A stretch of 31,874 nucleotides of DNA from a virus. How positions within the stretch are numbered: the stretch's first letter is position 1; the number at the start of each line of letters is the position of its first letter. The notes under the pieces were generated by a model. It saw only the letters and a program-made list of their open reading frames with translations. It did no database searches and was not told the origin of the DNA. The translations under genes and the position numbers were made by a program. Where the stretch lies: positions 1 to 31,874 of the IMG/VR virus record IMGVR_UViG_3300045988_165319; one strand, written 5' to 3'. Shown here in pieces: positions 2,329 through 30,325 of the stretch.

Positions 2329-2336
2329 ATTATACA
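2329..2336 (-). promoter_or_regulatory. Late-type -10 (TGTATAAT) upstream of the endolysin
   Basis: Minus strand reads GGTGTATAATG about 40 nt upstream of the lysin ATG. It is a one-T-shorter variant of the TGTTATAAT late promoter family. Confidence 0.4.
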
Positions 2337-3619
2337 CCAGCCGGGGTATTCTCCTGCCAGCCCGTTTCGTCGTCATTGTTTCTAAACTTCCACCACCGCT
2401 TACGTATCACATCTACATATTCAGGTGATAGTTCAGCTCCATAACATGTTCGACCTATTTGTTCGCAAGCCATCAAGGTTGATCCACTGCCGAGGAATGG
2501 GTCTAGCACTAGCTCATTGGATTGAGTGCTGTTATTGACCAGATATGCCATTAGCCCGACGGGCTTCATGGTGGGGTGGTCGAGCGATTTATTCGGCTTA
2601 TCGTGTTTGATAACCGTCTGCGGTAGTGTTTCCAGCATCCCTTTTAGCAGAGCCCTCAAGGCGTCTGCGCTCATTGAGTCGATATCGTCTATCTTGTCAT
2701 ATACGGTTGTAAGCGAGCGGTCGGCGATGAAGTAGTGCGATGCCCCCTCCTTAAACCCGTAAATAATCGGCTCATGCCGATAGTGGTAATCGTTGTGCGA
2801 TAGTACTAAGTGATTTTTGACCCAGACCAGGTCTTGAGTGATGTGCAACCCAACGTTCGCCGTTATAGCTTGCCTCACTTCTCTTGCCATCGACGAAGCG
2901 TAAAACACATAGAATGCTCCGCCGAGCTTGAGGTGATTGTTCGCCTCACTAAAGGCTTGCTTCAAAAACGCCTCCAGTTTTTCACTATCAACCTGGTCAT
3001 TGTCAATACTCACCTTTTTAGCTTTACCGACATAGCCGACGCCATAGGGCGGGTCGGTGAGCAATAGGTCGGCTCGCTGTCCGTCCATTAGCTTATCGAT
3101 AATGGTGTGGTCGGTACTATCGCCACATATCACCCTATGTCGCCCCAGCATGTACACTTCGCCAGGCTTACTGACGGGTGCTTCAGTCGATACTGTCGGT
3201 GGAGCGTCTTCAATAATCTCTACCTCTCCCTGGTCTGGCATATCGGGAATATCCAGCCCCCAGTCCTCCAAGGTCGCCACGTCCCAGCTGTTACTTAACT
3301 CATCCCAGTCCCAGTCGCCATAGGGCAGGTTATCCTTTACGATAAACTCTTTCTTCTGCTCTTCAGTTAGCCCCGTTACTTGGACAACCTCTATATCTTC
3401 ATAGCCGAGCTGTTTCAGCGCTCGATAGCGCATATTACCACCCAGGATGATATTGTCCTCGTCGACGATGATTGGGCGTATGCCCGTCATTTCGGGGAAC
3501 TCTCGGATGCTTTTGACCAGCTTAGCTAATTTATCTTTAGTGATGTGACGTGGGTTATTCTTGTTTAACTTGACGTCTTTCAGCCTCAGTCGAATAGTCT
3601 GTTTAGTGAACTTAGCCAC
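2330..3619 (-). CDS. ParB-like nuclease domain fused to a beta-class DNA methyltransferase (N6A/N4C type)
   Basis: The N-terminus has a ParB N-domain pattern (IRPIIVDEDNIILGGNMRYRALKQLG). The MTase part has motif IV (LLLTDPPYG) before motif I (LVLDPFLGSGST), i.e. a beta-class order. GTG start with SD AAAGGAG. Confidence 0.75.
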   Translation of the reverse strand: MAKFTKQTIRLRLKDVKLNKNNPRHITKDKLAKLVKSIREFPEMTGIRPIIVDEDNIILGGNMRYRALKQLGYEDIEVVQVTGLTEEQKKEFIVKDNLPYGDWDWDELSNSWDVATLEDWGLDIPDMPDQGEVEIIEDAPPTVSTEAPVSKPGEVYMLGRHRVICGDSTDHTIIDKLMDGQRADLLLTDPPYGVGYVGKAKKVSIDNDQVDSEKLEAFLKQAFSEANNHLKLGGAFYVFYASSMAREVRQAITANVGLHITQDLVWVKNHLVLSHNDYHYRHEPIIYGFKEGASHYFIADRSLTTVYDKIDDIDSMSADALRALLKGMLETLPQTVIKHDKPNKSLDHPTMKPVGLMAYLVNNSTQSNELVLDPFLGSGSTLMACEQIGRTCYGAELSPEYVDVIRKRWWKFRNNDDETGWQENTPAGV

Positions 3620-3644
3620 CCTTGCTCCTTTCTTAGTTACGGTT

Positions 3645-3653
3645 ATTATAGCA
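3645..3653 (-). promoter_or_regulatory. Extended -10 promoter (TGCTATAAT) for the MTase/lysis minus block
   Basis: Minus strand reads GGGTGCTATAATAACC about 25 nt upstream of the GTG start. It has the TGn extension typical of Gram-positive promoters. Confidence 0.5.
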
Positions 3654-3803
3654 CCCTCTCTTATAAAAGGTAAGAGCCCCGCCGGGTGGGAGGCGAGGCT
3701 TCTTGAAAGGAGACACTCTCATGACAACAGGCGTTGCAATGATGAGTAGTGATTAGAGAATATGCGACCCTAATCACGTTAGTATTATATCGCAAAACAA
3801 GGT

Positions 3804-3870
3804 GGCTAGGCTATTGTGCCTTGGCTCAAACCCAGAAAACCAAGGCGATACAGACAACAATAGCCTAGCC
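3804..3870 (+). other. Long nested stem-loop in the non-coding region (14-bp outer stem, 6-bp inner stem)
   Basis: GGCTAGGCTATTGT at 3804-3817 pairs with ACAATAGCCTAGCC at 3857-3870. The inner stem is CCTTGG/CCAAGG around a 15-nt loop. It is not a tRNA cloverleaf. Confidence 0.5.
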
Positions 3871-4001
3871 TTAAACGTGCGAGCACAGCAACTGTAGATT
3901 ACACAACTATCTGAATGTATGTGGTGACATGTAGTAGAACGAGACAAGCTGTTACGGTGCTATGGCTTCATGTTATCAAGTCACGTTATTTAAGTAAATA
4001 A

Positions 4002-4030
4002 CTATACCCCGGCGTGGAGCCGGGGTATAG
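4002..4030 (+). other. Perfect 12-bp hairpin CTATACCCCGGC-GTGGA-GCCGGGGTATAG
   Basis: Perfect inverted repeat with a 5-nt loop. On the minus strand it is followed by a T-rich stretch (TTATTTACTT). It belongs to the TATACCCC...GGGGTATA hairpin family also seen at 4920-4946 and 5039-5067. Confidence 0.5.
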
Positions 4031-4134
4031 AAGTTAGAAGGTGTGTACCCTACACGGATACCTTTAATGAAAGTATCACGGTGGCGGTTTATTGGCAAGC
4101 TATTTATTGATGTATTTATTACCTATCATAGGGC

Positions 4135-4163
4135 TTGCGTTTTCATATGAGGTTATATATAAT
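4135..4163 (+). promoter_or_regulatory. Early promoter P1 (TTGCGT-N17-TATAAT) with the conserved leader
   Basis: TAGGGCTTGCGT -35 block, 17-nt spacer, perfect TATAAT, then the conserved leader ATCATCAAATGAAAGGAGGAATGATGAG. Confidence 0.7.
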
Positions 4164-4909: not shown

Positions 4910-4919
4910 GGTAGTAAAA

Positions 4920-4946
4920 ATAGCCCTTCTGATTTAGAGGGGCTAT
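4920..4946 (+). other. Hairpin ATAGCCCTTCT-GATTT-AGAGGGGCTAT just after the stop of gene 4190-4909
   Basis: 11-bp stem with one G:U pair. An A-run precedes it and no U-run follows on the plus strand. Possibly a weak terminator or an RNA stability element. Confidence 0.4.
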
Positions 4947-5038
4947 CCCAGCCGGGCGACGTATTTACAATACGCTTAGTCATTCGACCGCTTACGGCTG
5001 TGCAACAGTACTTACGTCTGTAATATCACAATAATAAA

Positions 5039-5106: not shown

Positions 5107-5424
5107 ATGACCGCAGATCAAAATACACCTGGTTTTATTGTACCAGATGTAGGTGAGAAGTCAAGATTTCATGTTGATACTTTCGACTCCACCATTCTTT
5201 ACGACAATTATCTAACAAGTAACCAGAAAGTTGTCTATTTCTATTATTGCCAGCACGACCAGATTAGCGAGACGGCTGAGCAAGTCGCCAGTTTTCTTTA
5301 TTTAGGCGTCAGCACCGTAAAAGAGGCATGGCGTCGGCTCGAGGAGGATGGTTATTTGAAACTTATTGAGAAAAGAGGGCGAGTGCGTACGTACGTCGCC
5401 ATTTTTAAGTGCGGGCTATGGTAA
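5107..5424 (+). CDS. Small winged-helix-like DNA-binding protein (105 aa), possibly replication-associated
   Basis: SD GAAAGGAG 7 nt upstream. SETAEQVASFLYLGVSTVKEAWRRLEEDGYL resembles an HTH/wHTH segment. It sits immediately upstream of the initiator gene. Confidence 0.45.
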   Translation: MTADQNTPGFIVPDVGEKSRFHVDTFDSTILYDNYLTSNQKVVYFYYCQHDQISETAEQVASFLYLGVSTVKEAWRRLEEDGYLKLIEKRGRVRTYVAIFKCGLW

Positions 5425-6500: not shown

Positions 6501-6592
6501 CCACTAAAAACGCCACTAGACGCATTCTGAGGCACTTTCTAGCCGTTTTTATAGCCAAGATGGGTATTTACCCTACTTTGGGGCTAAAACGT

Positions 6593-6653
6593 CACACAGA
6601 GGCTCTGGTGCGGTCTGAGGGGGTGTTTTGTGGGAGGGTAGGTCTTAGCATTC
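6593..6653 (+). repeat. Conserved G-rich element, copy A (CACAGAGGCTCTGGTGCGGTCTGAGGGGGTGTTTTGTGGGAGGGTAGG)
   Basis: Near-identical copies at 15313-15364 and 31182-31229. The pseudo-ORFs translating as HTEALVRSEGVFCGR are by-products of this repeat. Confidence 0.85.
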
Positions 6654-6692: not shown

Positions 6693-6721
6693 TTGACAAA
6701 GCGGTATCGTCTTGCTACAAT
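6693..6721 (+). promoter_or_regulatory. Early promoter P2 (TTGACA-N17-TACAAT) with the conserved leader
   Basis: Consensus -35, 17-nt spacer, TACAAT, then ATCATCAATGAAAGGAGGAATGATGAG. Confidence 0.7.
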
Positions 6722-7897: not shown

Positions 7898-8518
7898 ATG
7901 CAGACACCTGAAGGAAGAGCTAAAGCGCTCAAAACGATGAGGGAGCGTTACGGCGATGATTACTTTAAGCGAGTAGGTCGGCTCGGCGGTTCGAGCTATC
8001 ACTCCAAGCCCCGTGGCTTCGCTTCCGACCCTGAGCAGGCTCGGATAGCGGGGCGCAAGGGCGGAGCTAAGTCACGTCGTCAACGTGATAGTGCATATAT
8101 CCTGCCAGGCTCGTTAGACAGCGAGACAGTGCGACGGATCATGTGGCAGGCGATTAGTCAAAATCGGTCGCTTTATAAGTCGATTAAGTCCATTAACGCT
8201 GACATGTTTAGCGCCTCAAAGAATGATATCGTTTGGGTGACTGAAGATGTGGTGCGTGAATACGTGGGGTGGACGGTTAGCCCAAATAGCATTATTAAAC
8301 AGGGCGTGCTTCGACATGGGGTGGATAAGCCTGTCGTCTACTGGTATCGGGTGATATGTGCCCACGACATCAAGAATAGTAATATCAATATCATCCTAAT
8401 ACTGAACATTGGCGACACTACTTATTCGCTTTATTGGGACGTTACCACCGAGCGCCCCGCCCGTCTGGGGCGAGCTAAAGACATTAAGTGCGCTGAGACT
8501 GAGTTATCCACACCTTGA
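7898..8518 (+). CDS. Protein with an N-terminal KGG-repeat (stress-protein-like) domain (206 aa)
   Basis: The N-terminus ERYGDDYFKRVGRLGG...GFASDPEQARIAGRKGGAKS is paralogous to the 77-aa protein at 22911-23144. SD GGAGAGGAGG. The last codons ELSTP lie inside the repeated promoter module. Confidence 0.55.
   Translation: MQTPEGRAKALKTMRERYGDDYFKRVGRLGGSSYHSKPRGFASDPEQARIAGRKGGAKSRRQRDSAYILPGSLDSETVRRIMWQAISQNRSLYKSIKSINADMFSASKNDIVWVTEDVVREYVGWTVSPNSIIKQGVLRHGVDKPVVYWYRVICAHDIKNSNINIILILNIGDTTYSLYWDVTTERPARLGRAKDIKCAETELSTP
8504..8512 (+). promoter_or_regulatory. DnaA-box-like TTATCCACA upstream of P3
   Basis: Exact 9-mer read directly. Confidence 0.45.
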
Positions 8519-8543
8519 TGTAAATGTGGCTATGCTATAGGGC

Positions 8544-8572
8544 TTGCGTCTTGGGGTGGGGTGAGATATAGT
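8544..8572 (+). promoter_or_regulatory. Early promoter P3 (TTGCGT-N17-TATAGT) with the conserved leader
   Basis: The segment 8500-8570 is about 90% identical to 10882-10952. Confidence 0.65.
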
Positions 8573-8598
8573 GTGTGTATCATCAAATGAAAGGAGGA

Positions 8599-9358: not shown

Positions 9359-9363
9359 ATAGT

Positions 9364-10489: not shown

Positions 10490-10900
10490 ATGAATGATGA
10501 CGATTTTGCTAAGCCGACAGACGGCATCCTGGGTGACGGGGTGCTGTCTTTTCGGTTAGCCCAGCTTTATGTTGGTGAGCCTAGGTATCACTGGGTCTAT
10601 CGCAACTATCTGGATCGCTTTACCCTATATCCTGTCGCTAGTGACAAATATCGAGGGCTACTGATTGTGCAGGTGGGCTTTGGGCGGGTGAGGCTACGGA
10701 CTCGAACGGGGGCGTGGGCTACCGAGCGATTGCGCCATATATCGATAGCTTGCGCTAAGCTACATAGTCACTTCAATTACGCTGTAGCTATCGTTACTAC
10801 TGCCGAAGACGCCAAGGCTATCTATCAATCATATGTTGACGGGACGAGCTATATCGATAACTTGACGGCTAATGCCTGCGGTGAGTTATCCACAGCTTGA
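10490..10900 (+). CDS. Hypothetical protein (136 aa)
   Basis: The ORF ends with ELSTA inside the repeated promoter module, paralleling the ELSTP ending of 7898-8518. Confidence 0.5.
   Translation: MNDDDFAKPTDGILGDGVLSFRLAQLYVGEPRYHWVYRNYLDRFTLYPVASDKYRGLLIVQVGFGRVRLRTRTGAWATERLRHISIACAKLHSHFNYAVAIVTTAEDAKAIYQSYVDGTSYIDNLTANACGELSTA
10886..10894 (+). promoter_or_regulatory. DnaA-box-like TTATCCACA upstream of P4
   Basis: Exact 9-mer read directly. Confidence 0.45.
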
Positions 10901-10925
10901 TGTAAATGTGGCTATGCTATAGGGC

Positions 10926-10954
10926 TTGCGTCTTAAGGTGGGGTGAGGTATGAT
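10926..10954 (+). promoter_or_regulatory. Early promoter P4 (TTGCGT-N17-TATGAT) with the conserved leader
   Basis: Same module as P3. Leader is TATCGTCAATGAAAGGAGGAATGATGAG. Confidence 0.65.
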
Positions 10955-10979
10955 ACTTGTATCGTCAATGAAAGGAGGA

Positions 10980-15251: not shown

Positions 15252-15280
15252 TCCGAGATATTTTATCGCTTTATTGTTAA

Positions 15281-15310
15281 AGATGAGTATATACTCATCT
15301 TTTTATTTAT
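15281..15310. terminator. Bidirectional intrinsic terminator between the convergent early and late blocks
   Basis: 20-nt perfect palindrome AGATGAGTATATACTCATCT followed by TTTTTATTTAT on the plus strand and TTTAACAATAAAG on the minus strand. Confidence 0.7.
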
Positions 15311-15312
15311 CA

Positions 15313-15364
15313 CGTCACACAGAGGCTCTGGTGCGGTCTGAGGGGGTGTTTTGTGGGAGGGGTG
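15313..15364 (+). repeat. Conserved G-rich element, copy B, between the terminator and the HNH gene stop
   Basis: CACGTCACACAGAGGCTCTGGTGCGGTCTGAGGGGGTGTTTTGTGGGAGGGG. See copies A and C. Confidence 0.85.
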
Positions 15365-15365
15365 G

Positions 15366-16036: not shown

Positions 16037-16038
16037 AG

Positions 16039-17030: not shown

Positions 17031-17039
17031 GCTACTCCT
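16991..17039 (-). repeat. About 49-bp repeat covering the RBS and 5' end of RBP paralog A
   Basis: See 16455-16503. Confidence 0.8.
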
Positions 17040-18126: not shown

Positions 18127-18128
18127 AC

Positions 18129-21100: not shown

Positions 21101-21166
21101 TAAGGATATCTCCCTGTTTGTTAACCCAGCTTAGCCGATACTGTACGTGTTGCTATTTCTGTTTCA

Positions 21167-21175
21167 ATTATAACA
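21167..21175 (-). promoter_or_regulatory. Late promoter, extended -10 TGTTATAAT, upstream of the tape measure gene
   Basis: Minus strand reads TAATTGATGTTATAATTGAAACAGAAATAG. This 30-mer is repeated exactly upstream of the portal gene at 27855-27884. Confidence 0.55.
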
Positions 21176-21179
21176 TCAA

Positions 21180-21494
21180 TTACGACCTTACTCTGCCGGC
21201 ATTAACACTCTTAGCTAGCGCCATACCCGCCAAGTACATCTGACGAGACGTTCCGACGCTTCTAACTATCGCCACGGCACGAATGCCACGACTGTTTGTC
21301 CTGAGCTTAGTCTCCACCTCGAAGGTCGGTGGTGCTACCCTGTCGCTCTTTGCCATTACGCTGGGGGCTATTGACGTTGCTCTAGCCTGGATAGCTTGAG
21401 CTGACTGCTTAACCACCCCTTGTGCCATTTCCTGGAGGACGTAAGCGCCACCGTCGAGGTTTAGCCAGAAGTTGGCGTATTTTCGCTTTACCAT
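21180..21494 (-). CDS. Hypothetical protein (104 aa) between the chaperone and the tape measure
   Basis: ORF only. No recognised domain. Confidence 0.4.
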   Translation of the reverse strand: MVKRKYANFWLNLDGGAYVLQEMAQGVVKQSAQAIQARATSIAPSVMAKSDRVAPPTFEVETKLRTNSRGIRAVAIVRSVGTSRQMYLAGMALAKSVNAGRVRS

Positions 21495-21501
21495 ACCTCC
21501 A

Positions 21502-22187
21502 TTATACCCGAGGACGTTTCAAGAATGCTTTCATGTCGTCAATTGACATAGTGACCGTTTCGTCTTTTGCCTGTCGTTTCAGCCGTTCCAGTTTACGTCT
21601 GGCGTTCTTTAGCTCGGGCGGGTCGAATGGCTCGGGTGCTTTAGCTCCCTTACGGCTAGCCTGCTTGGTCTTAGTCCAAGCGATAAAGTTTAGGCTATTA
21701 GTCATAGCTAGCAGTAGATACTCTTGTTTCGTCCAGGCGTTAGCCGGACTATACCTTGTCTTAGTCCGACTATCGAGCGGTAGCTGGCTAGCTAGCCTAG
21801 CTTTACGACCACGCTCTACCTTAGCGATATCAAGGTGATAGTATTGCTGAAAGTCCGCCTCCAGCTCATCATGGGCGTTAGCTTCTGCCCATAGTAGGGC
21901 TAACCTTTTGGGTTTATCAGGCTGGTGGTCTTCTCGACAATCTCTGAGGCTACGCTGATAGGCAATCGACCACGCTCCGCCTTAAAGTGGGCATAGGTCT
22001 TTTGGTATCCCTCCTCACCCAGAATAAGGACTAACAGCTCTTTAATCAGTCCGATATTCTCTCCCTTCGTCAGCTCAGCTAGTTTGGGGAGCATCTCGAT
22101 ATCATCCAGCGGGCTGGCGTCGACAGTCATCTCGTATCCGTCCACTTCGATTACACCTTTTAGCTTGTCGTCCTGATTGACACTCAT
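21502..22187 (-). CDS. Tail assembly chaperone G-T fusion product made by -1 programmed frameshifting
   Basis: The -1 frame after CCCAAAA at 21906-21912 (minus strand) stays open for about 135 codons and joins ORF 21502-21705 in frame. I checked codon by codon. Confidence 0.5.
21900..22187 (-). CDS. Tail assembly chaperone (gpG-like)
   Basis: 95-aa acidic protein immediately downstream of the major tail protein. It ends with the slippery heptamer C CCA AAA. Confidence 0.6.
   Translation of the reverse strand: MSVNQDDKLKGVIEVDGYEMTVDASPLDDIEMLPKLAELTKGENIGLIKELLVLILGEEGYQKTYAHFKAERGRLPISVASEIVEKTTSLINPKG
21906..21912 (-). other. Slippery heptamer C_CCA_AAA (X_XXY_YYZ) three codons before the chaperone stop
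   Basis: Minus strand reads CTG ATA AAC CCA AAA GGT TAG. Confidence 0.5.
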
Positions 22188-22232
22188 GTGGTCTCCTCTC
22201 TTTATTAGTGGTTATATTTTACCAAAAACAAT

Positions 22233-22252
22233 AAGCCCCGACAACGGGGCTT
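22233..22252 (-). terminator. Intrinsic terminator after the major tail protein gene
   Basis: AAGCCCCG-ACAA-CGGGGCTT, a perfect 8-bp stem, followed on the minus strand by ATTGTTTTTGG. Confidence 0.7.
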
Positions 22253-22280
22253 AGGGTGCGACTATCTACCTACTATTCCA

Positions 22281-22841
22281 CTAGGGGGTCGGCTTGGCGA
22301 TATACTCGACGTGGGTGTTACCGCTAGCGTCGGGCAGGGCAGTGATATTGACCGGGTAGCTGATAGCGTCGCCATCAGTGTAGGTGATATCGCCCGAGCG
22401 GTCGCTAATCTTAGCGTGTGGGATTACGATACGCTTAATCCGTCCGCCCGTCATAGCTATCTCCGCTACACCGACTACCTCGGGTAGCTCAGCACTGTTC
22501 ATCTTAATGGTCAGTTTTCCGCCTGCATCGGCAGTGACGTTACCGTCTCCGAAGTACAGCTTCAGAGCGTTGACGTCGGTCTCCAGCAGGTTGATAGCGA
22601 AGGTGTCGCTAAAGCTGGTCTGAGCGGTCGCTACGACGTCGCCACCCCATGCTTTGACCTCTTCCTTATCGGTCGAGACGGTATTTACTAAGCCGTCCTC
22701 GCTGATATAGCCGACACTGACGAACTTGTTATTCAGTGCGGTGGTGGCGTCGGTCGGTACGGGTGTCCCTGCGGGGGCGTAATAGAAGCCTCCCGTCACC
22801 TTAGGCTTACCGAATGATACGTTTGAACTGTTATTAGCCAT
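22281..22841 (-). CDS. Major tail protein
   Basis: 186-aa beta-rich protein with SD AGGAGT. It sits between the terminase block and the chaperones. It has its own extended -10 promoter upstream and a terminator downstream, consistent with high expression. Confidence 0.7.
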   Translation of the reverse strand: MANNSSNVSFGKPKVTGGFYYAPAGTPVPTDATTALNNKFVSVGYISEDGLVNTVSTDKEEVKAWGGDVVATAQTSFSDTFAINLLETDVNALKLYFGDGNVTADAGGKLTIKMNSAELPEVVGVAEIAMTGGRIKRIVIPHAKISDRSGDITYTDGDAISYPVNITALPDASGNTHVEYIAKPTP

Positions 22842-22902
22842 TATTGTTTTACTCCTGTTTATTGGCTAACGGCACAACCATAGTTGGCTCTGCTTAGATG
22901 AA

Positions 22903-22911
22903 TTATAACAT
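22903..22911 (-). promoter_or_regulatory. Late promoter, extended -10 TGTTATAAT, upstream of the major tail gene
   Basis: Minus strand reads GTAAGTAATGTTATAATTCATC. Confidence 0.55.
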
Positions 22912-23144
22912 TACTTACGCCTGCGTCTGAGTGTCTTGCCCCGGTTGGCTCGTCCACCCTTTGCCCCTGCCACTTTGGCTCGTTGCTTACCTCTTAAACC
23001 GTCCTTACCTCGCTTACGAGAGGCGAACCCGCCATCCTTGCTTTCTTCTCCGCCCTGTTGACCTATCTTCTGATAGAAGCCTCGACCGTATCTTCTAACT
23101 ATCGTGTCTCTTGTTCTGCGGGCACTTTTCTTTGTAGTACTCAT
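22911..23144 (-). CDS. Small, highly basic KGG-repeat protein (77 aa)
   Basis: YGRGFYQKIGQQGG...GGFASRKRGKDGLRGKQRAKVAGAKGG is a KGG-type repeat. About 30% of residues are Arg/Lys. Coupled downstream of the large terminase. Confidence 0.55.
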   Translation of the reverse strand: MSTTKKSARRTRDTIVRRYGRGFYQKIGQQGGEESKDGGFASRKRGKDGLRGKQRAKVAGAKGGRANRGKTLRRRRK

Positions 23145-23153
23145 ACCAATATT

Positions 23154-24638
23154 TTACCAGAGCATCACTTCTTGTTGAGTCTCACCGTCATTACCTGCTA
23201 TTACCCGCCTAAAACGGTTAGCACCATAGTGGGCTAGGGCGACGGCTTCTACGGGGTCGGTCTGTACTTCGGGGTTGATTGAGGCGAAGCCAAAAGCCCC
23301 ATCTCTACCGATATCCCTGGTTTTAGCCACCCTAATAGCCATATTGAGGGCGGGCTGATTGTAATGGGTGATTGTCTTGTTCTTGACGGCTTGATAAAAG
23401 CCCCCAAAACCTGCCCCGACCTCTCTGACGTTGGGGGTGAGGATCTTCTTTTTCATCCGTCTATCACTTCGGATTAGGTCTTCGATTAGGAGCTGTGTAC
23501 CTGATGCTCCGTCGATGATTATCTTCTGTGCTTTATCACGGCGTGGTAGTAGCCACCTGGTTATCCAGCTAATTCCTGCCTGCAAGGGTCTACGGTCGAT
23601 TAGCTCGACGTGGATCTTATTATTGGGCATAACCACCCCGACGGCTAGGCTGACGAAGGCTCTGTCGGGTGAAAACTTAACAGCATAGCAAAGGCTTGGC
23701 TTATCAGGCAATACTACCTCTTTAACCGCTAATTTATTCCATTCCTCAGTCTTAAAAGCTCGATCCGAGTCTACCCCTCTCACCCAGCCTAGACGCATCT
23801 TATTAAAACTATCCAAGCTCATGGTGCTTGACTCGGCTTCGACCGCACCTAACTGCAGAAAATAGCCCAAGCTGGGGTTAGTGTCATACCAGGCTTGTCT
23901 GACCTTCGGGTCGGTGACGGTCTCTACACTCCACTCCCGCCAGGCTACGTGAGTAGCTTTACCGCTGATAGTATTCTCCCTAACTCGCATAAATGTAGTA
24001 CCTCTAGCCCCTGCCGGTGGGGGTGTGCCTGCATAAATCATCTGATAGTTATGGTTTCGCCCCGCCGAGATTGTCGGTCGGAGGGCTTCCTCCTGGGCGT
24101 CTGTGAGCTCCTGCGCTTCATCTATGATTAGGGTGTCATTAGTAAAGCCAAGTCCAGAGTCTCTCGTCCTTGTCCTAAAGACACACCGTCCACCATTGCG
24201 CAATTCGATATAGTCGAGGCTTTTCGGCTCGTTATTGAACTCATCAGTGAGCATATTGCGCAATTCCTGCTTTGCTCCATAGAAAAACTGAAAGACAAGA
24301 CGCTTAATCTCGTTTACGGTGACGACGGTGTGAGCGGTGTAGACTAGTGTCTCTCCCTCACACACCATACCCGTGATAATCCTGCTCCTAAGTAAAAACG
24401 TCTTGCCGTTCTGGCGTGGTAACAATAGCCCACACTCATGGTTTGACCAGTCGCCGTTGTCGTCTTGCATCATCCACTGGCGCAAGGTGTCCTCCTGCCA
24501 TGGCAGGAGCTTATCGCCATACGACTCCATCAGTTCAATGCCAATATCAGCCAGGTATGGGTCGCCTTGCTGAAAGATATCAATGCGTGGCTTTTGGCTA
24601 CCATAGCGAGGTAGGGTGCTTGCCGTCTGCTGTGCCAT
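23154..24638 (-). CDS. terL: Terminase large subunit
   Basis: Walker A LLLPRQNGKT, Walker B TLIIDEAQ, C-terminal nuclease-like region. 494 aa. Confidence 0.9.
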   Translation of the reverse strand: MAQQTASTLPRYGSQKPRIDIFQQGDPYLADIGIELMESYGDKLLPWQEDTLRQWMMQDDNGDWSNHECGLLLPRQNGKTFLLRSRIITGMVCEGETLVYTAHTVVTVNEIKRLVFQFFYGAKQELRNMLTDEFNNEPKSLDYIELRNGGRCVFRTRTRDSGLGFTNDTLIIDEAQELTDAQEEALRPTISAGRNHNYQMIYAGTPPPAGARGTTFMRVRENTISGKATHVAWREWSVETVTDPKVRQAWYDTNPSLGYFLQLGAVEAESSTMSLDSFNKMRLGWVRGVDSDRAFKTEEWNKLAVKEVVLPDKPSLCYAVKFSPDRAFVSLAVGVVMPNNKIHVELIDRRPLQAGISWITRWLLPRRDKAQKIIIDGASGTQLLIEDLIRSDRRMKKKILTPNVREVGAGFGGFYQAVKNKTITHYNQPALNMAIRVAKTRDIGRDGAFGFASINPEVQTDPVEAVALAHYGANRFRRVIAGNDGETQQEVMLW

Positions 24639-24653
24639 CTCCGAGCGGTCTCC

Positions 24654-25625
24654 TTAGTTGTAAATGTCGCCAAGACGGACGAGCCTCATGGTTGTCCAGC
24701 TCGGTAGTATGGTCATATTTATGCCACGGTTTTCGATACTTGCTCTCACCTCCTGCCCTGGAGACGTAATCGCTATCGGCACAGTAGAGCCATACACGTT
24801 ATAGCCGGTTGACCGGATTGATTTGGTGGTTAAGTAAATAATATCCCCTGGCTGGCTTGGGGTGGGAGGGGTGACGCTCAGGATGACCAGCACATCGTGG
24901 GACTCTTTCGTCCCGAGCAGTAGGGTGACAAGATATATCCCAGGCTTACTGATCCGTACGGTCGCATTATTAGTTATCGTGTAATAATCGTATGCGTTGG
25001 ACGATGATGCGGTCACTTTATTGAGTTCTGGTATAAGGATCTGTTGCCCATCGGCTCGAATATCCCATGGCTGGCTTGGTCTAATTGCTATATACGGCGA
25101 TGCCGGGTATAGCTCACTCCTGTGCGGTCTGACGTCGAGGATTAGGTCGTTGCTCAGGTTGGTCGCTCCCGCCGGCACGGTCACTTGAGCTAGCTTGATA
25201 AACGGGTTGCCCGCCCCGATAGCCTGTAGTACGGCGTTATCGTCGGGGGCTTGGGGCGATACGTTTGGTGTCCCCTTAACGGCGACGAGCTTCAGCATGT
25301 TATTGACGTTATCTTGGCTATCCGTGGTGGGGGCGACCGATGAGTCGATGTAAATAACTATGAGGTCTTTACGGGGTAGGGTCGTATCAGCGGTAGTGAT
25401 AGTTATATCTACAGGTGATGTTAGCGCCACCCGACGTGATAGTTCACTATCCACCCTAATTAGGGCATTGCCTTTAGCGACGGTAACCTTCATCCCTCCC
25501 GTGGTAGACACCCTTAGGGCGTCATAGCTGGCGACAGCATTACCGCCCAGTGCTTCGTTTTCAAAGGCGGTGTATGCACTGGCTGAGTGTAGCCCTCCTG
25601 CCATGTTATAGACTTTATTCGCCAT
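24654..25625 (-). CDS. Hypothetical beta-rich structural protein (323 aa) immediately upstream of terL
   Basis: Ser/Thr/Val-rich. It is not a small terminase by size or composition. Confidence 0.4.
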   Translation of the reverse strand: MANKVYNMAGGLHSASAYTAFENEALGGNAVASYDALRVSTTGGMKVTVAKGNALIRVDSELSRRVALTSPVDITITTADTTLPRKDLIVIYIDSSVAPTTDSQDNVNNMLKLVAVKGTPNVSPQAPDDNAVLQAIGAGNPFIKLAQVTVPAGATNLSNDLILDVRPHRSELYPASPYIAIRPSQPWDIRADGQQILIPELNKVTASSSNAYDYYTITNNATVRISKPGIYLVTLLLGTKESHDVLVILSVTPPTPSQPGDIIYLTTKSIRSTGYNVYGSTVPIAITSPGQEVRASIENRGINMTILPSWTTMRLVRLGDIYN

Positions 25626-26040
25626 AAATATCTGTCCTCCTTGTTGTAATTAATGACCCTACCGCTTGAACGCCCGACAATTTCAGTTGACGCAATTCCG
25701 CCCCCTTAAACCATAAGTCCCCTGCCGGGTTAGTATAGGTGAATTGCTGGGTTTCTGAATATAGCCCCGCCGTCTGTCCGAATGAGGCGCTGTTTACCGG
25801 TGGGTTATCTAGTGGGGTTAGCATCGCCCGCTTGACAGCCTCCATCACCACCAGTTTAACGCTATCCTCCAAAACTTCCCCGTTCTTTATCATCTCGTCT
25901 AAGTCTTGCCCGATATTCTTGGCTATCTGGCGGAGCTGGTTGCTGGCGAGCTTGATTAGATACTCCGCTCTCTCCTTCTCTGAGGCGGTTAGTAAACGCC
26001 AAAACTTCTCTAAATCAGCTACTGTTGCGTATGGTTTCAC
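25615..26040 (-). CDS. Head-tail connector protein (gp6/gp15-like)
   Basis: The N-terminus YATVADLEKFWRLLTASEKERAEYLIKLASNQL matches the characteristic connector/DNA-packaging pattern. Confidence 0.5.
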   Translation of the reverse strand: MKPYATVADLEKFWRLLTASEKERAEYLIKLASNQLRQIAKNIGQDLDEMIKNGEVLEDSVKLVVMEAVKRAMLTPLDNPPVNSASFGQTAGLYSETQQFTYTNPAGDLWFKGAELRQLKLSGVQAVGSLITTRRTDIYGE

Positions 26041-26426
26041 GGTTGTTTTACCTCCTCCAAGGTCGCCACCTTATTATCCAGACCGACTACGGGCAGTTGG
26101 CGGACTTTCTCCATCCCGGTAGAGATAAATGAGTTGCCACCAAGTAGTCGATATCGGTCATAAAGGCTTTCTATCACCTGTAATTCTTGATAGTCAACCT
26201 TGCCGTCGGATAAGCATCGCTCTATGCGCTCGTGTATCTTGCTTTTGATGATACTTAGGTCGTTCTGCTTCAGAAGTTCGATGCTCGAGGCTATCTCGCT
26301 AATCTTAGTCTCGGTAGTTTTACGGTCGTTGTCGATGATCCGCCACATTCCCGCTATTAGAATAGGGGCGACGATACTCCCTAACTCACTGGCATTAGCG
26401 AATATCACGTTAGCTATGTTATGCAT
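26037..26426 (-). CDS. Hypothetical protein (129 aa) with a hydrophobic N-terminal segment
   Basis: VIFANASELGSIVAPILIAGMWRII. Function unknown. Confidence 0.4.
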   Translation of the reverse strand: MHNIANVIFANASELGSIVAPILIAGMWRIIDNDRKTTETKISEIASSIELLKQNDLSIIKSKIHERIERCLSDGKVDYQELQVIESLYDRYRLLGGNSFISTGMEKVRQLPVVGLDNKVATLEEVKQP

Positions 26427-27804
26427 CGGTTGCTCCTTCCTGTTTAGTAGGGGCGGTTGGTTGGTTATTGCCTATCTGGTTGGCGTCAGCTACAAAGGCG
26501 GGGCGCTTATTCGAGTTCTGCCGGCGTAATTGCTCCATCTCTCGAGGGCTAATTCCCAGCATATTGTATATCATCGGGGTGTTTGCTAGTTCGGGCATTA
26601 CCTGTAGTACCTTATAGGCCGCATCGCCCATCGCTCCGACATCGGCTTGGAATAGGGGCGACCAGGTTGGGGTGAGGTTGCGCATGCTTTCCGGCATATG
26701 TGAGTTGGCGTCGCTTGCCATTCGCAAAGTAATCGCCATCTGCTTAATCTGCTTGCCCAGCTCTTTCTGACACCCCTGCGCTTCCAGCAGTAGGTCGTCG
26801 CTCATAGTTCGAAGCGACTCGGCACTGGTCGGGTTGGCTGTCTCATAGCCCAGGTTGCGCAAGGTAAGTCCCGTTTCAGCGCAAAAGTCTCGAGCCAGGT
26901 CTTTCTTTGACTCGGCAAAGCCCGAGATGCTCATCTGCGCTAACTGTCCGATATCGGGCTTGTCGCCATCTTCGTCTTTGCTGATAGTCATCATCTTACC
27001 GATAGCCAGGTCTACATTCTTATCTTTCTTTGCCCCATTAGCAAGTCCGTTGATATAGCGTTGCGGGGTAGAGTAAAACTCCTCCGCCACCTCTTGACGT
27101 TGCTTTACTCGAGCCATTTCATCGACTATTTCTCTTACCGTCTTTGATATCCGACTTCTGCCCAGTGGGCGGGAGATATTGCGTCGCCTGGTAAACACCT
27201 GCATGAAAGTGCGCCCGGTTACGTTCGGTATCGCTTGGCTTAACCTGCCGTCAATATATACGGCGGTCATGTATGGGGTTACCACTACCCAGTTGCGTGG
27301 GGTCATCCCGATAAACTTGGCATTGATATACCCGTTTGGCGACTCTGACCATTTCGTCACGGCTAGCCCGCTAGTCACCAAGCCGGTCTTCTGGTCGACT
27401 ATGGCGGTAGCTTCTCTAGCGGTAAATGGGATAATGTTGTAATCGTCCGAGTTTTGGTCTTTGTCGAATATGGCAAAGGCACACCCTGCCACCATGGTGT
27501 CCATAATTAGCCCGTCGATAATGTCAAACGCTCCTATTCGCTCGAAGTAAGCGTTCATGTTGTAACTGTCGTTGATAAAGCCGTCGAAGTTTAGGCGGTC
27601 GGATAGGGTGGTGATAGCTCGGCTAGCCCAGCCTACTCCCGGCTTGAGGCTCTGCATTTTGACAGGTAGGCTAATCCCGATCGGCTTGGTGGGGTTGTCG
27701 GCATTGTAGTAGCTATACTTAACCCCCACATCGTTAGAGTGCTGACCAAGTTGGTCTAGAAGTTGCTTTGATAGCTGGTCTATTGTGTTGCTCGTAATGT
27801 CCAT
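26419..27804 (-). CDS. Portal protein (SPP1 gp6-like)
   Basis: 461 aa. A conserved central portal core region is recognisable and the C-terminus is acidic. Confidence 0.75.
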   Translation of the reverse strand: MDITSNTIDQLSKQLLDQLGQHSNDVGVKYSYYNADNPTKPIGISLPVKMQSLKPGVGWASRAITTLSDRLNFDGFINDSYNMNAYFERIGAFDIIDGLIMDTMVAGCAFAIFDKDQNSDDYNIIPFTAREATAIVDQKTGLVTSGLAVTKWSESPNGYINAKFIGMTPRNWVVVTPYMTAVYIDGRLSQAIPNVTGRTFMQVFTRRRNISRPLGRSRISKTVREIVDEMARVKQRQEVAEEFYSTPQRYINGLANGAKKDKNVDLAIGKMMTISKDEDGDKPDIGQLAQMSISGFAESKKDLARDFCAETGLTLRNLGYETANPTSAESLRTMSDDLLLEAQGCQKELGKQIKQMAITLRMASDANSHMPESMRNLTPTWSPLFQADVGAMGDAAYKVLQVMPELANTPMIYNMLGISPREMEQLRRQNSNKRPAFVADANQIGNNQPTAPTKQEGATDA

Positions 27805-27868
27805 CTTGTTTAACTACTTATTACCAGACATTACCGCCTCTGTAGACGTCGTTACTATTTCTGTTTCA

Positions 27869-27877
27869 ATTATAACA
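27869..27877 (-). promoter_or_regulatory. Late promoter, extended -10 TGTTATAAT, upstream of the portal gene
   Basis: Exact 30-mer shared with the promoter at 21153-21182. Confidence 0.55.
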
Positions 27878-27885
27878 TCAATTAT

Positions 27886-28449
27886 TTAGCGCCTGCTAGA
27901 CGGTTTAACGTAATTATCCAGGACACCGTTGCGAGACTTCCACCCCCTGGTCTCGATAATGCAAGTACAGTGGGCGTGACGTCTGAATAGGTCGGGGTCG
28001 GGGTCTGATACCCAGCTCCCTCTAGTATCCAGCCCATAACACCACCGACAGGCACTCATGTGGGTGACTGAGCGCCGTATTTCGGGACGCTTGCCGGCTT
28101 CACGGGCTAGCTTGTGGGCGTCTCTTTGCGCCATTGACACGGCATTATTGATGAATGCCTCTATCAGCGCATCTATCTCGTCTTTATTGCCTAGCACTAC
28201 CGAGTCGCTGACGCTTTTAGCCAGTCCATATACCATCTCATCGGGTATCCCGTCGCCGATAGCGTCGGCTATCTCCATGTCCCAAGCGTTCATGTCGAAT
28301 ATCTTGTTATAGACCGACGTGCCGACCTGGCGCAGGGCTACTTCCAGGTTGTATTGCCTGGTTTCAGGTGCTACTTCAGGGTTGTTTATTACCTTGATTA
28401 GCTCGAATAACTTCTTCTTTACGGGTGGGGTGAGGGCAGTATAGTCCAT
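27886..28449 (-). CDS. Minor head protein, Mu F-like C-terminal domain
   Basis: C-terminal Cys/His motif SACRWCYGLD...FRRHAHCTCII, typical of the MuF/SPP1 gp7 family. At 187 aa it is shorter than typical. Confidence 0.5.
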   Translation of the reverse strand: MDYTALTPPVKKKLFELIKVINNPEVAPETRQYNLEVALRQVGTSVYNKIFDMNAWDMEIADAIGDGIPDEMVYGLAKSVSDSVVLGNKDEIDALIEAFINNAVSMAQRDAHKLAREAGKRPEIRRSVTHMSACRWCYGLDTRGSWVSDPDPDLFRRHAHCTCIIETRGWKSRNGVLDNYVKPSSRR

Positions 28450-28787
28450 TATTTACCCCCTAGGCTATTAAAGTCCCAGTCATCGACGATACGTTCTATG
28501 TCATCGACAATATCTGCCATCTTGGTCATACGTTTATTGCTGTAACTGTTGCGGGTAGGAGCTGGCTTTTGAGATAGGATATCGATTAGCCTACTGGCGT
28601 TGCCGGCGGTCATGCCGGCTACTATTTCATCCAAGCTTTCGGCATTTTGGACGGGCTTTTTAGTTAGCTGATTAGCGTCGACGAGCTCCTTCAGCTCTTT
28701 CAGCTCTTTTAGCTTAGCCACCGCCATATCAGCGATAAACCCTTTTTGGTTATCGGTGATTAGTTGCGCTCCTTTCTCCGCTTTCAT
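28449..28787 (-). CDS. Hypothetical protein (112 aa)
   Basis: ORF preceded by a TATAAT 10 nt before the ATG. Confidence 0.4.
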   Translation of the reverse strand: MKAEKGAQLITDNQKGFIADMAVAKLKELKELKELVDANQLTKKPVQNAESLDEIVAGMTAGNASRLIDILSQKPAPTRNSYSNKRMTKMADIVDDIERIVDDWDFNSLGGK

Positions 28788-28812
28788 GCTCTTGATTATA
28801 GCTTAAACTAAA

Positions 28813-28838
28813 AAAGAGGGGAAGTCGTTCCCCTCTTT
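28813..28838 (-). terminator. Intrinsic terminator after the major capsid gene
   Basis: AAAGAGGGGA-AGTCGT-TCCCCTCTTT, a perfect 10-bp stem, followed on the minus strand by TTTTAGTTT. Confidence 0.7.
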
Positions 28839-28857
28839 CATCGCTAGGCTCGCCTAA

Positions 28858-29763
28858 CTATTTAGACTTTACGACCACGTAAGCCTTCGGGTCTAAAAAT
28901 GCAAAGCCGAGGTAAGTCTCACCACGGATTGCAATCTCGTTAGTGCGCTGTAGGTCGCCACCACCGTCCGGGTCGCCGTATTCAATGGTCTTGACGCCCA
29001 TCTCCTTAGCGATACCCCATCGGAAGGTGTTCCAATCAGCCACGATAGCCAAGTCCTTGGCAGTTGCCGGGGTCTTGATATCGTTCTTACCACTAACGGT
29101 GTCACTCGAGCGAGCAGTTAGCCCCTGGAAGCTGTCCATGTTAAGCCCAAACTGTAGTTCAGGGTATAACGGGCGCTTCTGGGCGTCTACCACCTGGGAC
29201 AGGCGGTAGGTGAAGTGCGGGTCAAGTGCTAAGCCGGTGGGCTGGTAGCCATTGCTAATCAGCGTGCCGACCGCCTGTGACAACGCTACATTGGGGGTCT
29301 GGGCGTCCAGCTCGACTGCGCTGGCAAAGCCTGCCTTGTCCAGGTAGCTGGTGACCAGGGGTGACACCTCACCGGTCTTGGGGTTGATACCGTGAATGGC
29401 GATCAAGTCCAAGCTTCGGCTTAAGGCGGTCAAGATACGACCGACCAGGGCGTCTACTACTTGGATCTTTCCCTCCTCCCCAAGTAACTGAACCTCCTGG
29501 CTGTATCGATAGGTGACCTGCACTTTATAAGTGCCGGTAGTCACCTTGGTGGGCTTTTCGTCAGCACTCGACTTTTCGCCACCTTCGCCGACCAGTTCCG
29601 CCTTCGGAGTGCCGGTAAAGGTGAAGATATCGGTTGCGCCGACCTTTAGTTCCGGAGCCGTCGGAGTCAATTGCGACAGTACGCCGGCATTGATGCTTTT
29701 GCTCCAAATCTCGCTATTCACATAGTTAGCTAGATCAAGAGTCCCTGCTTTTAGAGTAGCCAT
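28858..29763 (-). CDS. Major capsid protein (HK97 fold)
   Basis: 301 aa with SD AGGGAGAG. It lies downstream of a coiled-coil scaffold gene and is followed by a terminator. Confidence 0.75.
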   Translation of the reverse strand: MATLKAGTLDLANYVNSEIWSKSINAGVLSQLTPTAPELKVGATDIFTFTGTPKAELVGEGGEKSSADEKPTKVTTGTYKVQVTYRYSQEVQLLGEEGKIQVVDALVGRILTALSRSLDLIAIHGINPKTGEVSPLVTSYLDKAGFASAVELDAQTPNVALSQAVGTLISNGYQPTGLALDPHFTYRLSQVVDAQKRPLYPELQFGLNMDSFQGLTARSSDTVSGKNDIKTPATAKDLAIVADWNTFRWGIAKEMGVKTIEYGDPDGGGDLQRTNEIAIRGETYLGFAFLDPKAYVVVKSK

Positions 29764-29800
29764 TATTCTCTCCCTATCTATTATGCGTCAATGACGCTGT

Positions 29801-30268
29801 TTACTCTTGGCTGAGTAAGTCCTTGGCTAATTGCTTAATCCCTGTATCGGGATGATTGCTACCTGTCGAGCTGTCTTTCTCTATATTAGCTCCGCCTGGG
29901 ACGGTTTCGTGCGACAACTTTTCGGCTCTCGCTCTAATTTCCTCCTCGGTATTGCCGGTGACAAACTCGGCAAGGCTGTCTTTCACCTTAAACTCTCGCA
30001 TAGCCTTTTCTTTAGCTGTTTCAAGCTTCGCCTCGGCTGAGCTAGCTGTAGCCTTAGCTAACTGCTCTTTTAGCTCGGCTATCTCGGACGTGTGAGCGGT
30101 TTTTAGCTCGTCAATTTTCGACACTTTCTCTTTCAGCTCGTCGTAATCGGCGTATTTAGCCGATTGACGTTCGAGCCTTTTCTGTACGATAGTGTCGACT
30201 TCGTCTTGGCTGAGCGCATTGACCTCTTTATACGTCCCATCCTCGAGTTTTGTGTAAAACTTAGCCAT
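29801..30268 (-). CDS. Scaffolding protein
   Basis: 155 aa, strongly coiled-coil (EIAELKEQLAKATASSAEAKLETAKEKAMRE). It lies directly upstream of the MCP. SD AAAGGAG. Confidence 0.65.
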   Translation of the reverse strand: MAKFYTKLEDGTYKEVNALSQDEVDTIVQKRLERQSAKYADYDELKEKVSKIDELKTAHTSEIAELKEQLAKATASSAEAKLETAKEKAMREFKVKDSLAEFVTGNTEEEIRARAEKLSHETVPGGANIEKDSSTGSNHPDTGIKQLAKDLLSQE

Positions 30269-30316
30269 TTATTACTCCTTTGACCGTTAGATTACTCAGC
30301 CGTCGCTGATGTATAA

Positions 30317-30325
30317 ATCATAACA
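30317..30325 (-). promoter_or_regulatory. Late promoter variant, extended -10 TGTTATGAT, upstream of the scaffold gene
   Basis: Minus strand reads CAATATGTTATGATTTATAC. Confidence 0.45.

Follow-up and report, generated by a model that had tools for sequence, protein, structure and literature searches.

Predicted −35-less extended −10 promoters along the late arm of an uncultured siphovirus, and a putative RNA pseudoknot shared by its portal and tape-measure leaders

The stretch of DNA analyzed here (the window) comprises positions 1 to 31,874 of IMG/VR virus record IMGVR_UViG_3300045988_165319, 31,874 nucleotides (nt) in all. PHROG and Pfam scans describe it as a siphovirus of ~31 kb with a GC content of ~50%. 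Its late arm is encoded on the minus strand in the order Hc1, tail terminator, scaffold, major capsid protein (MCP), two small genes, portal, Ad1 adaptor, head protein, TerL, a small gene, tail tube (major tail protein, MTP), chaperones, tape-measure protein (TMP), Dit, Tal and further small genes, with an HNH endonuclease gene last. The early arm occupies the plus strand, and a separate minus-strand group holds a DNA methyltransferase (MTase), a lysin and a terS-like gene. An earlier note, made from the letters of this stretch, had proposed that the late genes are served by several promoters of one family, each built on a TGn-extended −10 element without a good −35, and that two of these promoters, upstream of the portal and TMP genes, share an exact repeat of 30 bp. 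We examined both proposals by comparing the window with its relatives.

When the late arm was compared by megablast with 50,697 phage records, close deposited phage relatives were not found. For the portal protein, metagenomes yielded 1,143 homologs, of which many lie on contigs of 30-34 kb, and 91 related loci were fetched for comparison; the portal proteins of the relatives used are 50-64% identical. A genome collection contributed six contigs of the phage family (loci L007-L012). Four of these six, from four independent studies, were binned in metagenome-assembled genomes (MAGs) of Candidatus Saccharibacteria or Saccharimonadales; of the other two, one was binned with Luteolibacter and the other in a MAG without classification. 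One Saccharibacteria-binned contig is close to the window, with a portal protein 98% identical and late-arm DNA 92% identical. Judged from MAG binning alone, the host is probably a member of Saccharibacteria, within the Candidate Phyla Radiation (CPR), rather than of Firmicutes, and the typing of the promoters as Firmicutes-like in the earlier note found no support.

The 30-mer TAATTGATGTTATAATTGAAACAGAAATAG occurs in the window exactly twice, both times on the minus strand and both times where it had been reported; none of 100 shuffled sequences gave any match, even with up to three mismatches permitted. Both copies are intergenic. Copy A (27855-27884) lies between the stop codon of g28449 (27888-27886) and the portal ATG (27804), while the first letters of copy B (21153-21182) are the TAA stop codon of g21494, and 52 nt separate this copy from the TMP GTG (21100) downstream. 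Each copy carries the extended −10 element TGTTATAAT, at 27869-27877 in the promoter of the portal operon and at 21167-21175 in that of the TMP operon (both minus strand), together with the initially transcribed region, that is, the first ~8 nt transcribed from a predicted start. This start would be A27862, which follows C27863 in a pyrimidine-A step (Y−1/A+1), in the portal copy and A21160 in the TMP copy.

TGnTATAAT elements were found in almost every intergenic gap of the minus-strand late arm. TGTTATAAT recurs as the predicted MTP promoter (22902-22910, minus strand), directly after the stop codon of g23144, and the variant TGTTATGAT (30317-30325, minus strand) would serve the scaffold-MCP unit. 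TGCTATAAT (3645-3653, minus strand) lies 25 nt before the GTG of the MTase gene, after a terminator-like hairpin at 3700-3675, and TGGTAAAAT (22216-22224, minus strand), the predicted promoter of g22187, overlaps the T-tract of the terminator that follows the MTP gene; g22187 has a Shine-Dalgarno sequence (SD). The TG of the extended −10 is present at the portal, TMP, MTP, scaffold, MTase and g22187 sites, and also at the g23144 site described below. It is missing at the sites of g28787, g21494, Hc1 and Tal, which have AG or GG in its place; the last of these, AGGTATAAT (18150-18158, minus strand), falls within the 3' end of Dit, 23 nt ahead of the ATG of Tal, and is of uncertain status. All of the variants listed in the earlier note were present, but the one before the lysin gene, GGTGTATAAT (TATAAT, 2329-2334, minus strand), which includes the MTase stop codon, has its TG one base out of register and is thus a plain −10 rather than an extended one.

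Exact matches to TGNTATAAT numbered four on the minus strand and none on the plus strand, relative to an expectation of 1.3; four were reached in 4 of 100 shuffles. With one mismatch allowed there was no overall enrichment (34 sites versus 31.3), but placement was far from random. Eleven of 13 near-consensus minus-strand sites in the late (minus-coded) arms had a start codon no more than 80 nt downstream, compared with an expected 12% (p = 6e-9).

Conservation in the relatives carries the case for the promoters. TGnTAnAAT recurs at the same junctions, before the portal, TMP, tail-tube, scaffold, Hc1 and post-capsid genes, and across the loci 245 distinct TGNTATAAT sites fall on the late strand versus 17 on the other. 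A position matrix built from 399 family sites gave T−18 (58%), T−17 (66%) and R−16 (75%), followed by T−15, G−14, n and TAtAAT; exactly 6 and 7 nt past the hexamer the same matrix has a start-site step, with Y−1 in 83% and A+1 in 61% of sites. A −35 is absent: the best TTGACA match at a spacing of 16-18 nt averaged 2.51 of 6, relative to a background of 2.47 at random positions. The early arm, in contrast, has a canonical TTGACA-17-TGcTACAAT promoter at 6693-6721 and a repeated family with TTGATG. The conservation at orthologous junctions, the strand bias, the TRTG motif and the Y−1/A+1 step bear out the proposed TGn-extended −10 late promoter family, and a −35 score equal to background agrees with the claim that none has a good −35. 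We conclude from these comparisons that the promoters are real as a conserved family of −35-less extended −10 elements, predicted to drive the late genes.

As a class, extended −10 promoters are well known. They bypass the contact between sigma region 4 and the −35, and phage factors exploit this bypass for a late-gene switch (PMC7403470). The family described here resembles the extended −10 class of primary-sigma promoters in having TG one base upstream of a near-consensus TATAAT, a TRTG extension and no −35 (PMC7403470). It differs in that the arrangement is here the rule for a whole late arm and is kept at orthologous junctions in ~90 phages, that the host polymerase is possibly that of a CPR bacterium, and that the starts are predicted. 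The host primary-sigma RNA polymerase would presumably read these promoters through sigma regions 2 and 3, and transcription presumably begins 7 nt downstream, at the pyrimidine-A step (in the window, 27862 and 21160). The published paper on Saccharibacteria phages does not mention promoters.

In Thermus phage P23-45, at its middle/late promoters, and in T4, late genes use extended −10 promoters while a phage protein that displaces sigma region 4 (gp39 and AsiA, respectively) shuts off −10/−35 promoters (PMC7403470). The window is like these systems in having early promoters with a −35 and late ones without. It is unlike them in that Pfam and PHROG scans gave no recognizable gp39- or AsiA-like protein, and the switch is hypothetical here. 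The −35-less late promoters would fit a switch of this type, in which displacement of sigma region 4 leaves only extended −10 promoters active; without a −35, the late promoters would either be out of reach of a factor that turns transcription away from the −35-bearing early promoters or be dependent on it. In most relatives (loci L013-L091) the conserved block TTATGTTACAATTACAATATCTGGTATAAT, about 30 nt upstream of the portal −10, contains a second extended −10-like element, TGTTACAAT, 18 nt before the portal TGGTATAAT; the portal promoter of the window has a single −10. The doubled −10 could be a tandem promoter or a sigma-dependent pause arrangement.

Two intrinsic terminators interrupt the late arm. 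The first, with a 12-bp stem and a T-run, follows the MCP gene (28812-28839, minus strand) and is kept in 58 of 58 distinct relatives; the second follows the tail-tube gene (22232-22253, minus strand) and is kept in 57 of 57. Among the relatives such terminators are rare after other genes, namely portal (2/71), TMP (4/43), scaffold (0/49) and Dit (0/27). A −10 element stands directly after each of the two. Conserved terminators at these places demand internal promoters, and a single upstream late promoter would be insufficient, in agreement with the proposal of several late promoters. The late arm would accordingly not be one operon but a chain of short, insulated transcription units, each beginning at a −35-less extended −10 promoter with the consensus T−18 T−17 R−16 T−15 G−14 n TAtAAT, and the units of the most abundant virion proteins (scaffold-capsid and tail tube) would each end at a strong intrinsic terminator. 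Relative to the usual siphovirus, the order of the structural genes is permuted (15366-31066 and 698-1597, both minus strand), with Hc1 and the tail terminator first, followed by scaffold-capsid, then portal to TerL, then the tail, and with the terS-like gene far from TerL; this permutation fits a set of independent transcription units. TerL is placed elsewhere in relatives (L002).

Several small genes have the −10 unusually near their start codons. In the family, the distance from the −10 to the next ATG of a long open reading frame (ORF) peaks at 6-7 nt. Spacings of this kind in the window are 7 nt at g28787 (AGCTATAAT, 28795-28803, directly after the MCP terminator), 6 nt at g23144 (TGGTAAAAT, 23151-23159) and 6 nt at g21494 (GGGTATAAT, 21501-21509), all on the minus strand and none with a usable SD. 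The latter two leaderless-type sites were missed by the earlier note, which had suggested leaderless mRNAs for g28787 and for the gene at 31066, here identified as Hc1. The g28787 assignment holds. At Hc1 the element GGCTATAAT (31067-31075, minus strand) abuts ATG 31066, and a spacing of 0 nt between TATAAT and ATG makes a leaderless start at that codon impossible. In relatives with the same arrangement (0-1 nt), a second in-frame ATG follows 6-7 nt further on and the conserved protein begins there. Hc1 in the window therefore probably starts at the in-frame ATG 31057, 9 nt after the hexamer, with a predicted leader of ~2 nt.

Homologs of Hc1 and g21494 retain the short spacing between −10 and ATG. 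For some small genes, then, the predicted mRNA would have no leader or almost none, the −10 lying just 6-9 nt ahead of the AUG. Leaderless mRNAs are known from lambda cI transcribed from PRM and are common in Actinobacteria and Deinococcus-Thermus (see also PMC4633059). The predicted transcripts are like these in the 6-7 nt between −10 and AUG, in the lack of a usable SD at g28787, g23144 and g21494, and in a spacing kept in relatives; they are unlike them in that leaderless and SD-led genes are mixed in one arm and the 5' ends are predicted. For a −35-less late arm with leaderless genes and insulated units, Thermus phage P23-45 is a published parallel.

The identity of the two 30-bp copies is not explained by the promoter alone. 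The structural relation between them extends downstream, past the exact repeat, into a second element absent from the earlier note; as judged from comparison of the leaders, the repeat runs on into a covarying RNA pseudoknot of the portal and TMP transcripts. This element follows the −10 of the portal and TMP promoters by 12-19 nt (mode 16-17), has the form ACG(C)..AC(A/G)G..(G)CGG..AAA..C(U/C)GG, is 23-27 nt long and ends 14-32 nt before the start codon. A loose regular expression found it 160 times on the late strand versus once on the other in 1.14 Mb, and 149 of the 160 had a −10 ending 12-19 nt upstream. The gene downstream was that for the portal in 92 cases, for the TMP in 61 and another in ~2.

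A covariance model recovered 150 copies, all of them on the late strand, of which exactly two are in the window. The portal-leader copy, ACGUCUACAGAGGCGGUAAUGUCUGG (27824-27849, minus strand; model hit 27820-27853, 28.3 bits), has the predicted helices P1 CGUC/GGCG and P2 CAGA/UCUG and the third loop (L3) GUAAUG, and ends 19 nt before the ATG. The TMP-leader copy, ACGUACAGUAUCGGCUAAGCUGG (21126-21148, minus strand; model hit 21122-21154, 24.8 bits), has a P2 of 4 bp (CAGU/GCUG) and a weakened P1 (CG/CG plus a U-U mismatch). A scan of the whole viral collection returned 126 loose matches, and only the 16 that have the −10, and hence the full cassette, precede portal or TMP homologs; the others look like chance. 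The portal gene of the window has no recognizable SD at 27805-27823 (minus strand; GUAAUAAGUAGUUAAACAAG-AUG), where nearly all relatives have AAAGGA, and its translation may rely on other means.

The variants fit an H-type pseudoknot in which the 5' strand of P2 lies inside the P1 loop and a 5-6 nt A-rich loop (YAAAA) joins the helices. P1 is CGC(N)/(N)GCG, consisting of a C-G, a G-C and a third pair, with a fourth when the linker is 2 nt; P2 is CRG(N)/(N)CYG, consisting of C-G, R-Y and G-C pairs, with a fourth when the linker is 3 nt. Pairs were counted in 101 distinct aligned copies and in 53 distinct cores parsed by an anchored regular expression. The second count was added because in short-linker variants the third P1 pair is shifted by one column in both the MAFFT and the covariance-model alignment, so that the alignment-based count understates P1 pairing.

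Among the 101 copies P2 was 99.7% paired, and its middle pair was G-U in 41, G-C in 37 and A-U in 22, with none unpaired. Its fourth pair was UA 43, AU 5, CG 1, GC 1 and UG 1, with 1 unpaired, and the fourth pair of P1 was AU 13, UA 10, UG 9, GC 3 and CG 2. None of 500 shuffles reached the observed pairing, covariation score or number of pair types, and sliding the partner by 1-3 columns lowered pairing to 12-53%. In the 53 anchored cores the third P1 pair was CG 42, UA 4, AU 1 and UG 4, with 2 mismatches, and the R-Y pair of P2 was G-C in 21, A-U in 13 and G-U in 19, and never A-C (Fisher p = 6e-4). The fourth pairs followed length class: P2 was paired there in 25 of 26 cores with a 3-nt linker, and P1 in 17 of 25 with a 2-nt linker.

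Portal and TMP copies alike show all three types of the P2 middle pair, and within a genome the two often differ, from which it follows that the changes arose more than once. The frequency of G-U together with the absence of A-C points to a fold of RNA (or of a single strand) from the late strand, as a palindrome in duplex DNA does not predict this asymmetry. Unpaired nucleotides are also conserved, namely an A before P1, an A before P2 and a G after each 3' strand. We infer from these patterns that the element folds as an H-type RNA pseudoknot in the mRNA.

Rfam contains no family matching at the two leaders, either in an E-value scan of the whole window or in two scans of short stretches, and a prior description of the motif was not found in the literature. 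Known leader pseudoknots bound by proteins include those of T4 gene 32 mRNA and the ribosomal protein S15 and S4 operators. The present element is like them in being a compact H-type pseudoknot in a 5' untranslated region, upstream of or beside the ribosome binding site of a gene whose product has to be kept at a set level; it is unlike them in having no sequence relation, only 7-8 bp, and two paralogous copies per genome heading two operons. It also resembles the preQ1-I aptamer, an H-type pseudoknot of about 25-34 nt with an A-rich third loop next to the SD, and differs from it in its conserved nucleotides and in that no queuosine-related genes lie nearby in the window; the preQ1-I model (RF00522) gave no hit at E ≤ 10 on stretches of 111-121 nt, nor at E ≤ 5 on the whole window. 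Among regulatory leader pseudoknots, a known category, that of the portal and TMP leaders is thus a new motif.

Other late leaders are structured as well. Scaffold leaders have a hairpin of 4-5 bp, in the same A-CRG..CYG-G frame as the pseudoknot, directly before an AAAGGA SD. In the window this is UCAGC-GACG-GCUGA (30296-30309, minus strand; core CAGC-GACG-GCUG at 30308-30297), as predicted by minimum free energy (MFE) folding, and the relatives have at least nine helix variants, among them CGGU/ACCG, CAGG/CCUG, CGGG/CCCG, CGAG/CUCG and CGCU/GGCG. RNAalifold predicted nothing for these leaders, the 4-bp hairpin having been misregistered by MAFFT, and an anchored parse was used instead. Tail-tube leaders have the form GCAGAGC..variable hairpin..GUUGUGC, with a conserved closing stem; the window copy, also an MFE fold, is GCAGAGCCA-ACUA-UGGUUGUGC (22872-22893, minus strand). 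None of five closing pairs is broken in 59 relatives, and one of them switches between A-U (49) and C-G (10). In one relative, L005, the pseudoknot is placed before the tail-tube gene.

These results suggest the following reading. The 30-bp repeat would be the promoter and the A-rich, G-poor initially transcribed stretch of two paralogous cassettes, of which one heads the portal operon and the other the tape-measure operon. The transcript would fold, ~5-12 nt from its 5' end, into the pseudoknot beside the ribosome binding site, and the 5' tail (6% G) would stay single-stranded. The pseudoknot would then serve as the operator of some trans-acting factor, probably a protein, that tunes translation or mRNA fate of the two operons. 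We favor this reading because the element (i) marks two operons with low-copy first products, (ii) has conserved unpaired bases, and (iii) is too weak to be a block alone. It is most likely, then, an operator that sets the dosage of low-copy proteins, although we hold the mechanism loosely. A more specific version, in which the pseudoknot is a sensor, either an operator for an unassembled structural or regulatory phage protein (assembly-coupled feedback) or a binder of a small ligand, and thereby sets the portal and TMP dose, is possible but tentative. The reading as a whole, comprising −35-less late promoters, insulated units, leaderless genes and a portal/TMP cassette with a leader pseudoknot, we regard as probable, with moderate confidence. 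Much of what the earlier note had proposed is retained in it, namely the promoters, the missing −35 and leaderless mRNAs in general; its host, its lysin site, its start at 31066 and its view of the repeat are corrected or extended.

Several points weigh against this reading. Start sites and timing are predictions from sequence. Pfam and PHROG scans of essentially all ORFs found no recognizable candidate binding protein, sigma factor, anti-sigma factor or antiterminator, nor any NusG-like or RNA-binding protein; ~25 early proteins are without any Pfam or PHROG annotation. The role in dosage control is suggested solely by the identity of the two genes, and the host call comes from MAG binning, with one relative in a Luteolibacter MAG. 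The pseudoknot has just 7-8 bp, and P1 of the TMP copy in the window is down to two pairs and a U-U mismatch. Nested MFE folds of the leaders, made with a tool that cannot model pseudoknots, were no better than shuffles (z of 0 to −1.9), so the case for the pseudoknot is comparative rather than thermodynamic. Finally, the sequences are related, and as the covariation counts ignore kinship, part of the signal may be inherited.

An alternative that we consider unlikely is that the pseudoknot is a signal for processive antitermination or elongation, like nut/boxB, put or ops, which lets polymerase complete the portal and TMP operons. The element is promoter-proximal and heads the two longest late operons (~5.5 and 5.7 kb), and the second −10-like element of many relatives, 18 nt upstream of the −10, could cause sigma-dependent pausing. 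P23-45 gp39 moreover joins promoter switching with antitermination (PMC7403470). However, the conserved terminators stand upstream of the cassettes, and the portal and TMP operons have no strong ones within them; N-, Q- or NusG-like proteins were not found in Pfam and PHROG scans of the window proteins, none of which has an NGN/KOW (NusG paralog) hit; and the element always stands 14-32 nt from the start codon beside the SD, which points to translation. Like the RfaH ops element and lambda nut-boxB, it is a promoter-proximal leader element heading long operons, and the portal copy in the window contains GGCGGTA, as in ops GGCGGTAGnnTG. It is nevertheless a two-helix pseudoknot, rather than the 2-bp DNA hairpin of ops or the boxB stem-loop, and the residues that define ops (a flipped-out T6 and a C3:G8 pair) are unconserved: GCGG is followed by C, T, A or G and then by AA(A), the T6 position being C in about half of the copies and T or A in others, and the G8 position being A. 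On these residues the resemblance to ops was rejected.

Alternatively, the leader structures could lack any specific partner and serve as generic stabilizers of the mRNA 5' end or as spacers leaving the SD accessible. Three different structured leaders (the pseudoknot, the scaffold hairpin and the MTP hairpin) do occupy equivalent places, and the pseudoknot before the tail-tube gene in L005 suggests that leaders are interchangeable. We think this improbable, as loop and flanking nucleotides are conserved in sequence, and not pairing alone, and a generic role leaves the strict portal/TMP specificity unexplained. Protective 5' stem-loops of RNase J/E substrates usually have shorter 5' tails than the predicted single-stranded tail of 5-12 nt.

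Equally improbable, in our view, is that the promoters are plain ones, the 30-bp identity stemming from recent gene conversion and the downstream likeness being a functionless leftover of duplication. In its favor, the window copies are identical over the promoter and divergent after it, P1 of the TMP copy is weak and MFE folding is unremarkable. The pattern is reversed in L002, however, where the pseudoknot part is identical between copies and the promoter part differs. Approximately 150 copies are also kept across relatives with 50% protein identity, with compensatory and G-U changes and never A-C, and gene and strand specificity are strict, none of which a neutral leftover would produce.

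Slightly poorer is the standing of a reading in which ACGC..GCGG..CYGG is a double-stranded DNA operator, downstream of the start, through which a dimeric phage regulator represses or activates both promoters. The short inverted repeats (CGCA/TGCG and CGG/CCG), a position of about +10 to +35, where repressors can block escape, and a helix-turn-helix-like ORF at 5107-5424 with weak Pfam hits are compatible with it. However, G-T 'pairs' are common in the element (19 of 53 cores at one position and ~10 elsewhere) and A-C never occurs, an asymmetry without meaning for a palindrome in duplex DNA; its repeats interleave as a pseudoknot rather than forming a single dyad, and its spacers vary by 1-3 nt while pairing persists. 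The G-U/A-C asymmetry and the interleaved helices led us to reject a palindromic operator in double-stranded DNA. Lastly, a very small riboswitch coupling portal and TMP expression to a host metabolite has in its favor the preQ1-I topology at nearly the same size with an A-rich third loop, the highly conserved unpaired nucleotides and the place just upstream of the SD, but is very improbable, given that short stretches and lax filters still gave no match to any Rfam riboswitch model, that at 23-27 nt the element is to our knowledge smaller than any known aptamer, that MFE folds reveal no evident alternative structure sequestering the SD, and that the scan of the viral collection found it only in phage late leaders.

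Some further features of the window may be recorded. The repeat family of the early arm, on the plus strand, stands at 58-126, 8500-8586 and 10882-10968, with a partial copy at 4128-4151 (AGTTATCCACA..TTGATGTAAATGTGGCTATGCTATAGGGCTTGCGT); it carries a perfect DnaA-box-like TTATCCACA and the −35-like TTGATG, and each copy is followed by a near-identical region of ribosome binding site and start, TATCATCAAATGAAAGGAGGAATGATGAG (4169, 6726, 8578 and 10959). These repeats are probably early promoter/operator cassettes. A different repeat of ~106 nt (76-86% identity; 6538-6643, 15261-15366 and 31124-31229), located at boundaries of the early and late arms, consists of a palindromic, terminator-like hairpin and then the G-rich GAGGCTCTGGTGCGGTCTGAGGGGGTGTTTTGTGGGAGGG. 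At 4910-5028 (minus strand), between two plus-strand early ORFs, Rfam matched DUF3800-I RNA (RF02969) over its full length with 76 bits, relative to a gathering score of 44. Upstream of it are a minus-strand promoter-like TTGACT-16-TGgTACAAT (5164-5137) and hairpins at 5151-5124 and 5069-5037; a DUF3800 gene is not evident near the match, the adjacent 243-aa ORF having no Pfam hit.

An exact direct repeat of 189 nt (527-715 and 31587-31775, 31,060 nt apart) includes a GC-rich terminator hairpin; the sequences flanking the two copies are unrelated (22-26% identity). One possibility is that it marks the unit length of a genome that is circular or permuted and was assembled across a variant module; another is that the copies are att-like ends. 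As for a prophage att site, neither a tRNA nor an integrase was found. The MTase (2330-3619, minus strand) has an N-terminal ParB-like domain (PF02195 + PF01555). In the tail region, a repeat of 92 nt (79% identity; 16412-16503 and 16948-17039) spans the 5' ends and ribosome binding sites of the adjacent genes g16494 and g17030; both begin ATGCGCCA and are probably paralogs.

The sequences compared here give a testable transcription map, obtained without culture, for a large and widespread family of uncultured phages of ~30-34 kb. If the Saccharibacteria host is true, the matrix TTRTGnTAtAAT and the Y-A start offer an indirect view of promoter recognition by a CPR RNA polymerase. The pseudoknot comes with ~150 natural variants and clear covariation, and is small enough for direct biophysical study. 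Its tie to two low-copy virion gene products makes dosage control in phage assembly directly testable. Were the sensor reading true, the element would define a class of regulatory RNA that is both new and unusually small, in phages of probable Saccharibacteria hosts, whose gene regulation is essentially unstudied.

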